From the IMG/VR virus record IMGVR_UViG_3300006752_000009: a stretch of 64,000 nucleotides of DNA; one strand, given 5' to 3'. The stretch comes from a virus. Taxonomy: Duplodnaviria > Caudoviricetes. The notes beneath the pieces were generated by a model that did no database searches, was not told where the DNA came from, and saw nothing but the letters and a program-made list of their open reading frames with translations. Position 1 is the stretch's first letter. Each line of letters starts with the position of its first letter. Both the position numbers and the translations under genes were made by a program. Positions 52,735 to 55,471 of the stretch are shown one piece after another.

Positions 52735-53736
52735 TTAATCCTCGTCATACTCTTGTTGAGCGAGGATTAACATACCCTTAGAGACAGCATGGAGTGGATC
52801 AGAAGCATGACGAACCTCTGAAATCTCAATAGGGAAACGCTTACGCTTAGTCTCAAAGACCTCTCTAAAGAAATCCATGAACCCACCTGCTAGACTTGTG
52901 CCACCACCCACTACGATTGGAATGGGCTTGTTAAGGGTGAGGTGTCCACCTTTCATCACAAACTGTTGTGCGATGTTATCCAAAGCGTGTTCAATAAGAG
53001 CCTTATAATAGAACGAGATCGCTTCTTCTTCTCTATTCTTAGGGTCTTTAAGGTTAATGCCTTTCTCTTTAACAGAACACATCTTAGAGGCTGTAGCACC
53101 TACAGAGCGAGACGCACCTTGATCAATCCAATCACCCCCACGAGCAACTGAGAATGAAAGACCCTCAATGGTGTTGATAGCGAGGGCAATGTTGGTCATA
53201 CCCGAACCAAAAGAGATGCCGATACCACTAAATCCTTCTTTAGATGTTTCGGCAAAGACAATAGCCATAGCTTCGTTAGCTGGATGAGCTGTATAACCAC
53301 ATTCTTGAACGATGCGTGTAAAGACACCCTTGTGATAAACAACATCCATGTTAGCGTCTACAGGAGCGGCAGGGATTGAGAAATAACAATGCTCTCCCTC
53401 ATGGCTTGGTTCACCGAGTACATCTTTAACCATGTGTCCAAGAACAGTAAGGGAGTCGATCTCATCGGCAGAAATCAGACCTGCTTTTAGAGGTCTACGA
53501 CCTTCACGACCAAACATATTGGCAACTTCCATAGCCTCATCACCGAGTACAAGAAGGTTATCATCAGCTTCGATGTAAGAAACCGATCCGAGTTTGAGCA
53601 TCTTTTTTGCTGATTGTGGGAGGTCGATAAATAGATCACGCATTCTTCTAAGAGTGACCTCGTTTTTCTTAGCACCACTCATACGAGCGGAGACTAAGTT
53701 CATAGTTCCAATGTCAAGTCCTACACCTTTACTCAT
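52735..53736 (-). CDS. Actin-fold ATPase (MreB/FtsA/ParM-like)
   Basis: Phosphate-1 GLDIGT, connect-1 NEAMAI, phosphate-2 SFGSGMTN, adenosine VGGGTS, connect-2 AVSKG. Confidence 0.85.
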   Translation of the reverse strand: MSKGVGLDIGTMNLVSARMSGAKKNEVTLRRMRDLFIDLPQSAKKMLKLGSVSYIEADDNLLVLGDEAMEVANMFGREGRRPLKAGLISADEIDSLTVLGHMVKDVLGEPSHEGEHCYFSIPAAPVDANMDVVYHKGVFTRIVQECGYTAHPANEAMAIVFAETSKEGFSGIGISFGSGMTNIALAINTIEGLSFSVARGGDWIDQGASRSVGATASKMCSVKEKGINLKDPKNREEEAISFYYKALIEHALDNIAQQFVMKGGHLTLNKPIPIVVGGGTSLAGGFMDFFREVFETKRKRFPIEISEVRHASDPLHAVSKGMLILAQQEYDED

Positions 53737-54374: not shown

Positions 54375-54943
54375 GGTTCGCCTTTGCTCATACTTTTAGT
54401 AAGAAAGAAAGTTGCCCTTCGTATGGCTTTCATTCTACCCTTCTCAATCCCTTGCTCAATAAAGTTAAACTTATAGACGGCTGGATGTATCCATTTGTTT
54501 TCCGTTTTAAGGGGGAGATTTCTAAACACGACCTCGCCTGTCTTGGTCTTAATCGGTACGACTTTCTTCTCCATGTTGGATTTACGAGTAAGCCAATTCA
54601 TTTCATAGGGTTCTTTGCGTTCAAGATACTTCTTAACCCACTGCCAATCAGACTTGAGTTTGATTGCTCCACCTTTAGTGATTTCGTAGTAGAACGAATC
54701 TAAGAACTCTTTGGTGCGAGGTATACCTGTACCCAGACCTGCCGCTTTCTTAGCTGACTCTTTAACTGCCTTGACTATTTCTTCACCAAAGATTTCTAAG
54801 ACCTTTTTCGATATGTCTTTGCCTCTTAGGTCTACATTCTGAAACTGATTTTTACGCACTCTGTAAGTACGGAGATCCCAAGGTCGATTTGGATCTCTGT
54901 TTTTGGGTGGGTTTCTTCTTGCTCGTCTTGGGTCAAACTTCAT
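54371..54943 (-). CDS. Basic hypothetical protein, possibly virion morphogenesis
   Basis: Start reassigned to MKFDP (GAGGAGG SD). Confidence 0.55.
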   Translation of the reverse strand: MKFDPRRARRNPPKNRDPNRPWDLRTYRVRKNQFQNVDLRGKDISKKVLEIFGEEIVKAVKESAKKAAGLGTGIPRTKEFLDSFYYEITKGGAIKLKSDWQWVKKYLERKEPYEMNWLTRKSNMEKKVVPIKTKTGEVVFRNLPLKTENKWIHPAVYKFNFIEQGIEKGRMKAIRRATFFLTKSMSKGEP

Positions 54944-55018
54944 ATCTATGCCTCCTCTATTGAGGTTTTGATAAACAAAGTACAAAGCTCAATAGTTTTT
55001 TTATGATTGGTGGATAGT

Positions 55019-55159
55019 GATTGTATCCCCTGTTCCCGATATGTGTATCTCCCATTGGGAGTCCGAAGAAGAAGGGTGTCAGGACATATTGGGGGCAGAA
55101 CTCCTTTGATCTGTTTGGTTTTCACCCTTTCTCAAACAGTTAGGAAACAGGAGGCAATC
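55019..55159 (+). ncRNA. Candidate structured RNA with loop-loop complementarity
   Basis: Nested stems and AAGGGTG/CACCCTT loop pairing; follows class I variant TAGTTTTTTTAT. Confidence 0.5.
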
Positions 55160-55183
55160 GCTTGCTCACACAAGGATTTTTTC

Positions 55184-55471
55184 ATGTCAGATAAAGAACC
55201 AGAAGTAGACCCCATAGAGATTGAGGTCAACCTCTTAAATGAGTTGATCGAGGACAACATTATCATAGTTATTCATCGGAACGGTATGTCTATCATGATG
55301 AATGAGGATGAAGATGATAGATCTCAAGAACAGATGAGGTTATTTTCTCGCCTCTATGTAGCGGCTAACCCTAGCTTTGTTCTTCGGGTGTTTCTGATCT
55401 TAGAGGTGTTTTTGCTCTTAGTTTGGGAGACTTTAGCCGATTTCTACGACTCAAAGATCAAGAAACCGTAA
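55184..55471 (+). CDS. Hypothetical membrane protein
   Basis: Start reassigned to MSDKEP (AAGGA SD). Confidence 0.5.
   Translation: MSDKEPEVDPIEIEVNLLNELIEDNIIIVIHRNGMSIMMNEDEDDRSQEQMRLFSRLYVAANPSFVLRVFLILEVFLLLVWETLADFYDSKIKKP

Follow-up and report, generated by a model that had tools for sequence, protein, structure and literature searches.

A kissing-loop RNA related to CyVA-1 in the leader of a giant phage gene

The DNA examined here, a stretch of 64,000 nucleotides referred to as the window, comes from an uncultured marine giant phage, the nearest record to which is an IMG/VR contig of 375,691 bp that is rated 100% complete. A Rfam search of the whole window at gathering scores returned tRNAs only (ten genes) and no CyVA-1, the motif to which the element described below is compared. 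The window also carries a MazG gene and an actin-like gene of the Volactin family. The actin-like gene (52735-53736, minus strand) matches Pfam Volactin with an E value of 1.8e-73 and, among deposited phages, matches only two uncultured phage genomes of 485-595 kb (60% and 31% identity). The element itself sits in a 240-nt divergent spacer that separates a leftward gene for a 190-aa protein (ATG at 54943) from a rightward gene for a 95-aa protein (ATG at 55184; Table 1). The start codon of the 95-aa gene is kept in its homologues, at an aligned ATG, and comparison of the protein with Pfam, PHROG, and Atlas gave no family or lead. In the window, this gene forms part of a longer 154-aa ORF (55007-55471) with 59 codons open upstream of the ATG; these are open in the window only, and the in-frame stretch before the ATG is 3-25 codons in five relatives (L001, L008, L009, L010, and L012). 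As judged from this alignment, the 154-aa frame is not conserved, and the upstream codons are not an N-terminal coding extension of the 95-aa gene. The initial annotation had proposed an intergenic structured RNA ahead of the gene at 55184 and had named translation of the 59 codons, combined with pairings that do not covary, as the outcome that would speak against it. Both parts of that outcome failed to appear, as the frame is open only in the window and the pairings, described below, covary; the RNA is non-coding and lies in the leader of that gene.

The class I-like motif that had been noted upstream of the element corresponds to a recurrent late-type promoter motif, with 13 matches to the consensus TAGTNNNTTTAT in the window compared with 0.97 expected. 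The predicted transcript start is at ~55012, about 6 nt before P1, the outermost helix of the element, and all relatives retain the motif ahead of either the element or the gene. In L014, a copy with unrelated flanking genes, a TGCTATAAT box ends 7 nt 5′ of its P1. Rightward transcription from the motif at 54993-55004 would make the element the first ~150 nt of the message from the 95-aa gene, the ATG of which lies 25 nt past the end of the element. Two late-promoter motifs can be seen back to back in the spacer, 10 bp apart (54971-54982, minus strand; 54993-55004, plus strand), the first, TACTTTGTTTAT, serving the leftward gene (190 aa) and the second, TAGTTTTTTTAT, the rightward leader. The sequence GATAAACAAAGTACAA (54970-85) was also considered as the promoter of the element and was rejected, because it reads as the late motif on the opposite strand and serves the leftward gene.

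Table 1. Coordinates in the window of the leader element, its flanking signals, and the downstream gene
Feature	Position	Strand	Sequence and remarks	Basis
Late-type promoter motif	54993-55004	+	TAGTTTTTTTAT (consensus TAGTNNNTTTAT)	Recurrent motif
P1, 5′ strand	55019-55028	+	GATTGTATCC; partner 55150-55159	RNAalifold and alignment
P2 and P3, 5′ strands (long arm)	55030-55037 and 55038-55044	+		Covariation
P3a side hairpin	55049-55061	+	CTCCC-ATT-GGGAG; stems 55049-55053/55057-55061
GAAG-loop hairpin	55063-55083	+	CC, 17-nt loop GAAGAAGAAGGGTGTCA (55065-55081), GG
P3 and P2, 3′ strands	55084-55090 and 55091-55098	+		Covariation
Px, 5′ strand	55102-55105	+	TCCT; pairs with AGGA at 55142-55145; encloses the U-loop hairpin	RNAalifold
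P4 hairpin	55111-55139	+	CTGTTTG (55111-55117), 15-nt stretch (55118-55132), CAAACAG (55133-55139)
Px, 3′ strand	55142-55145	+	AGGA; within conserved TAGGAAACAGG	RNAalifold
P1, 3′ strand	55150-55159	+	GGAGGCAATC	RNAalifold and alignment
Shine-Dalgarno sequence	55172-55176	+	AAGGA; serves the 95-aa gene; predicted not sequestered by the element
95-aa gene	55184-55471	+	Acidic N-terminal part, one C-terminal hydrophobic helix (membrane protein)

Folding of the window sequence by itself was unremarkable (z = -1.77 for the plus strand and -1.73 for the minus strand), and the case for a structure therefore rests on comparison. Relatives were retrieved from IMG/VR and from metagenomes by means of the flanking 190-aa protein, and the full element was found in the window, in the close relatives L001 and L008, and in the diverged relatives L009, L010, and L012. 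Across these six full copies, 96.5% of the structure cells are paired, compared with 37-53% when the partners are slid by 1-3 columns, and eight pairs have changed on both sides, in a set that amounts to two sub-lineages only. Run unaided, RNAalifold returned identical helices together with an extra short stem, Px. On these comparative grounds, 55019-55159 of the plus strand is a folded RNA, in which a three-way junction closed by P1 carries two arms. Helices P2 and P3 contain changes from G-C to A-U, and they also contain U-G pairs that are readable only on the plus strand; these would be A-C if read on the other strand, which therefore places the RNA on the plus strand.

The GATTG/CAATC pairing that had been taken to close the element lies in P1, which can be extended in the window by 55016-18 with 55160-62 and which is swapped for AACTCC/GGAGTT in the L009-type copies and for a 14-bp helix in L014. 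The previously described 10-bp stem (55035-44/55084-93) belongs to the long arm, formed by P2 (CTGTTCCC/GGGGGCAG) and P3, and it covaries. The two short hairpins, CTCCC/GGGAG and CTGTTTG/CAAACAG, reappear as P3a and P4, and both covary: P3a is found as CTCCC/GGGAG, TTTCC/GGAAG, or CCTT/AAGG and is missing in L014, and the P4 stem reads CTGTTTG, CCATTTG, ATATGGG, or GGGCTC while its loop stays. The GAAG-loop hairpin of the long arm is almost unchanged among the relatives, and Px is unchanged among the six full copies, with Px-equivalent helices of other sequence present in L014 and, as CCAGG/CCUGG, in the cyanophage copies. All of the sequences quoted in the initial annotation were found in place; of its pairings, that of cccctgttcc with ggaaacagg was given up. 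This pairing competes with P2, and a G-to-A change in CCCCTGTTCC is compensated in GGGGGCAG, the P2 partner, and not in the invariant GGAAACAGG.

The loops presented by the two arms, GAAGAAGAAGGGUGUCA on the long arm and UUUUCACCCUUUC on the short arm, pair over 7 bases. In the window, AAGGGUG at positions 8-14 of the GAAG loop (55072-78) is matched with CACCCUU (55123-29), part of the conserved 13-nt U-rich loop TTTTCACCCTTTC (55119-31) within the 15-nt stretch of P4, and all 7 of the 7 pairs are Watson-Crick. Because both kissing strands are constant within the megaphage group, wider sampling was needed. A search for the two-loop pattern found L014 and L015, the flanking genes of which are unrelated to those of the window's phage. 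The loops of L014 are identical to those of the window, the sequences of its P1, P2, P3, and P4 are entirely different, and the window's architecture returns in its minimum-free-energy fold (z = -3.57). In L017 and L018, found with a pattern that fixed the loop flanks only, the kiss reads AAGUGCG/CGCACUU and differs from that of the window by two compensated pairs. Two looser patterns gave 56 and 36 loci in viruses. Complementarity is 7/7 in 36 of the 46 distinct raw matches from viral contigs that have the window's order of loops, with a pattern that is blind to complementarity, compared with 2.7% of non-cognate loop pairs; in bacterial and archaeal genomes, the same pattern gave a chance distribution, with a mode of 2-3 of 7 and 7/7 in 1 of 112. 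The collection from viral contigs comes to 53 distinct copies, among which the complementary 7-mers form 16 different pairs. In an alignment (A5) of 14 G-first representatives, chosen among copies whose loops were already fully complementary, pairing of the kissing helix is 100%, with changes on both sides at 4 of its 7 pairs. The covarying pairs across copies bear out the earlier suggestion that AAGGGTG and CACCCTT are complementary loops that kiss: to judge by these sequences, the loop-loop pairing is genuine, and its helix covaries freely. Mimicry of an anti-Shine-Dalgarno sequence, with CACCCUUUCU standing in for the 3′ end of 16S rRNA, was considered and set aside because the kissing bases vary freely.

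Covariation is blind to whether such loops pair within one molecule or between molecules, and a P1-closed junction with two complementary loops, in single copy and behind a late promoter, could by analogy assemble into an RNA ring or chain. The model for such an arrangement is the packaging RNA (pRNA) of phage phi29, which has paired 5′ and 3′ ends and two complementary, covarying loops that pair between molecules over 4 bases, and which is a free early transcript that is essential for packaging. The window RNA resembles pRNA as a phage junction RNA in single copy with paired ends and complementary loops; however, it forms part of an mRNA, in the leader, and is not similar to pRNA in sequence or by Rfam. 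The two hairpins lie side by side in short CyVA-1 forms, which are most simply read as kissing within one molecule, and no connection with portal or terminase genes was apparent. Some relatives of the window's phage dispense with the element altogether, which an essential packaging part would forbid, and intermolecular pairing of the phi29 kind is considered extremely improbable.

Among known RNAs, the closest likeness was found to the CyVA-1 RNA motif, Rfam RF02965 (Weinberg et al. 2017, PMC5737381). A relaxed Rfam search of the region gave a local CyVA-1 match of 18.0 bits, confined to the 5′ arm, and the window copy thus falls short of the gathering score of 41.4; there was no match to the riboswitch and ribozyme classes of Rfam 15, and the other sub-threshold matches (snoR12 and PK-IAV, at E > 5) were noise. 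In the L001 copy, positions 1-77 of the CyVA-1 model align end to end with the 5′ arm (17.5 bits), with P2/P3 corresponding to the closing stem, P3a to hairpin 1, and the GAAG hairpin to hairpin 2. CyVA-1 is characterized by a closing stem around a small hairpin, followed by a C-G-closed hairpin with a 17-nt loop of the form GAAGrAGA-N6-UCA. Both features can be seen in the window, where P2/P3 enclose P3a and the GAAG hairpin (L014 has the same arrangement without P3a) and where 55063-55083 reads CC-GAAGAAGAAGGGUGUCA-GG, with a loop as long as the GAAGGAGAaCGACGUCA of CyVA-1. This loop retains GAAG, AGA, and UCA, and its variable middle falls in the variable part of CyVA-1. Also common to both are a U-rich loop, UUUU-N7-UU(C), in which N7 pairs with positions 8-14 of the GAAG loop in the same register (7/7 Watson-Crick in the window), and occurrence in phages and cyanobacteria. 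In three true CyVA-1 copies (L026, L039, and L077, 43-52 bits), the hairpin 1 loop is gGUUUUaCCGUUuugu and the hairpin 2 loop is GAAGGAGAaCGACGUCA, and the former pairs with positions 8-14 of the GAAG loop, 7/7.

The two RNAs differ in where the U-rich loop is carried. In the CyVA-1 model, it lies in hairpin 1, 5′ of the GAAG loop, whereas the corresponding P3a loop of the window is AUU, which at 3 nt cannot kiss; UUUUCACCCUUUC is instead presented by an extra hairpin, P4, that is 3′ of the GAAG arm, and an outer P1 encloses the arm and P4 together. The window's order is that of 41 of the 53 copies, a majority that holds for a pattern-limited sample, and none of those tested reached the Rfam threshold. 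Two cyanobacterial loci that score 74-81 bits on CyVA-1, L150 (Oscillatoria sp. CS-180; 2030-2165) and L227 (192-320), also have a U-loop hairpin, located 30-35 nt past the 3′ end of the model. In L150, both hairpin 1 and the 3′ hairpin are 7/7 complementary to the GAAG loop, and in L227 the matches are 6/7 from the 3′ hairpin and 5/7 from hairpin 1, with a C-G to U-A change between the two loci that is compensated between the 3′ hairpin and the GAAG loop. From the presence of the 3′ hairpin in these loci, the natural RNA appears to be longer than the Rfam model, which would describe its 5′ domain only. Description of the window element as an "order-swapped permutation" of CyVA-1 was softened, because high-scoring cyanobacterial CyVA-1 loci have the 3′ kissing hairpin as well. 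CyVA-1 goes unmentioned in a published account of natural RNA permutations (PMC10085705), and "cyanophage" was nowhere paired with "kissing loop" in a literature search. From the arm and loops that they share, the window element is a divergent full-length relative of CyVA-1 with an additional outer P1, and it is not a member by the Rfam test; the term "novel" used in the initial annotation was therefore too strong. Its helices are kept by compensation and its loops are invariant in genomes with flanking proteins that are 80-97% identical, which argues for ongoing selection, and it is very probable that the locus encodes a selected, CyVA-1-related kissing-loop RNA.

The element is present as one copy per phage record, including the 375,691-bp record, and several relatives of the window's phage carry only remnants of it or none. 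L004 (2850-2960) and L011 have a decayed 5′ arm only, in which the loop is shortened to GAAGGGUGUCA and the U-loop hairpin is gone; the L002 type (2870-2960) is a stub with only a P3a-like hairpin; and L013 lacks the element and has a 28-nt leader. As the element has decayed or been lost in these close relatives, it is dispensable there. Elsewhere, copies are found in varied contexts. The L014 copy lies between a promoter and an N6/N4-methylase-like gene, and the L017 copy is flanked by a nuclease-like and a MazG-like gene, so that in each of the P1-closed lineages (window type, L014, and L017) a gene on the same strand follows at a distance of 25-60 nt. About 25 copies occur in S-EIV1-like cyanophage contigs (capsid 68% identical to that of S-EIV1), where they start 2-17 nt past the stop codon of a ~196-aa LAGLIDADG_2 ORF. 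These LAGLIDADG-linked copies contain a third covarying hairpin, which is enclosed together with the U-loop hairpin by the CCAGG/CCUGG stem. Examples are L028:7977-8619, with two tandem LAGLIDADG ORFs, and L034:12130-12901. One further copy follows talC-hli and faces convergent genes, and the L027 copy precedes a tRNA gene. A group I intron was considered for the copies behind LAGLIDADG ORFs and was rejected, as L028 has no room for a 5′ exon or intron half and there is no Rfam intron match on the same strand. BLAST searches against cultured phages gave no match for the locus or for two of the cyanophage copies, and the loop pattern is absent from the cultured relative S-EIV1 and from the neighborhood of the actin-like gene of the 485-kb relative LR745208.

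This distribution bears on whether the element is a relic of a mobile RNA or homing-endonuclease cassette, with little or no function now in the megaphage. Its patchy presence among relatives (intact, half-deleted, stub, or absent) is what a relic would leave, the same loops in the unrelated phage of L014 suggest transfer, and many copies abut LAGLIDADG genes. An endonuclease gene is not, however, adjacent to the window copy, and compensatory changes maintain all of its helices around invariant loops; a relic is very unlikely.

A trans-acting small RNA was also weighed, in which the domain would be cut from the leader or the transcript would mostly end after it, with the 95-aa gene sharing its promoter. 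Rfam files CyVA-1 as "Gene; sRNA," and a cyanobacterial metatranscriptome has shown CyVA-1 to be expressed (PMC7002113), both of which agree with such a product, as do the single copy per genome and the copies that adjoin a tRNA gene (L027) or follow hli with convergent genes downstream. Against this, no conserved terminator or processing site was found after P1 in the window lineage, in which the U-run at 55177-82 is missing from L001; among the cyanophage copies, U-runs (read by eye) follow some only. In the window's phage group, the element is always fused to the leader of the same gene, and close relatives have lost it without replacement. On this evidence, a small RNA acting in trans is unlikely.

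Regulation of the 95-aa gene was considered from the predicted accessibility of its ribosome site. Partition-function folding gave a mean P(unpaired) of 0.45-0.72 for this site in all six full leaders, and folding of the same six leaders revealed no expression platform that hides it. By these models, the element is probably not a switch that works by masking the ribosome site. In the leaders of L009, L010, L012, and L002, the predicted 5′ end, UUUGAUC/U, pairs with (G)AUC/UAAA in the spacer from the ribosome site to the AUG, and a C-to-U change in L012 keeps a G-U pair. The leaders of the window, L001, and L008 are without this pairing, and L002, which lacks the full element, has it.

The pairing of the 5′ end with the spacer before the AUG in the L009 type could nevertheless serve a riboswitch-like cis regulator, in which a ligand or protein would stabilize the kissed, P1-closed state and set downstream translation. 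Three independent P1-closed lineages lie 25-60 nt 5′ of a gene, and CUCCU (55101-05) has alternative partners in the AGGA of Px, an AGGAG in the P1 region, and the AAGGA ribosome site. A P1-closed junction with kissing arms also recalls, by analogy, the purine-type aptamers, in which a three-way junction closed by P1 has its arms held parallel through an L2-L3 loop contact. The window RNA has the same combination of P1 with two arms joined by a loop-loop contact in a 5′ leader, but its kiss is a covarying Watson-Crick helix of 7 bp, which should hold without ligand, and its conserved bases are in the loops and not in the junction. It also differs from purine riboswitches in having no expression platform, no consistent class of downstream gene, and no Rfam riboswitch match. 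The downstream genes of the family are unrelated (95-aa membrane protein, N6/N4-methylase-like, and MazG-like), many members are followed by no gene that they could control, folding predicts an open ribosome site, and the alternative pairings do not covary. A riboswitch-like regulator is accordingly regarded as unlikely.

On balance, the locus seems best explained by an extended CyVA-1 family domain that is placed in a late leader and behaves as a self-contained module. The long arm (P2-P3 and P3a) presents GAAGAAGAAGGGUGUCA, the short arm (Px-P4) presents UUUUCACCCUUUC, and the 7-bp AAGGGUG/CACCCUU kiss locks both arms together, an arrangement that would furnish the 95-aa membrane protein's late mRNA with a compact, base-paired 5′ end. 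Members of the family are found in leaders, at gene 3′ ends, in intercistronic spacers, and next to tRNA genes, and their downstream genes are unrelated, so that the function is more likely intrinsic than gene-specific. A role as an autonomous stabilizing or recognition module is put forward tentatively, one in which the base-paired 5′ end and rigid kissing core may protect or mark the transcript that carries them. Alternatively, a factor could be bound through the invariant unpaired bases that flank the kiss (GAAGNAGA, UCA, UUUU, and UUC).

CyVA-1 has been catalogued as an orphan motif, and the conserved loops are here joined by a freely covarying 7-bp helix; the catalogued model misses every tested copy that has the window's order, which gives grounds to rebuild the family model. 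The RNA has the appearance of a travelling module, with copies in cyanobacteria, in a 375-kb megaphage, and in cyanophages, both S-EIV1-like ones (where homing endonucleases adjoin it) and talC/hli-bearing ones. At ~140 nt, it offers a compact experimental target, with natural compensatory-mutation controls for asking what the RNA binds or protects. A broader reading, which taken as a whole is more speculative and unlikely, would make the GAAG-loop/U-loop kissing core the mark of a large superfamily of RNAs from phages and cyanobacteria, most of it uncatalogued. The Rfam CyVA-1 would then be the 5′ half of one arrangement, with the kissing partner on the 5′ side, the 3′ side, or both sides of the GAAG loop; the RNAs would be mobile between unrelated phages, often beside LAGLIDADG genes, and their unpaired loop bases would form a ligand or protein pocket or an intermolecular interface. 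If true, this would amount to a new class of functional RNA and not a passive structure.

Other structured RNAs can be seen on two of the contigs that carry the kissing-loop RNA. A glutamine riboswitch (Rfam, 49 bits) is located at L044:2809-2871, on the same talC/hli-bearing cyanophage contig as one of the copies. At L030:3089-4943 (plus strand), there are five Rfam group I intron matches (62-75 bits) within 2 kb, on the strand opposite to the kissing-loop RNA.
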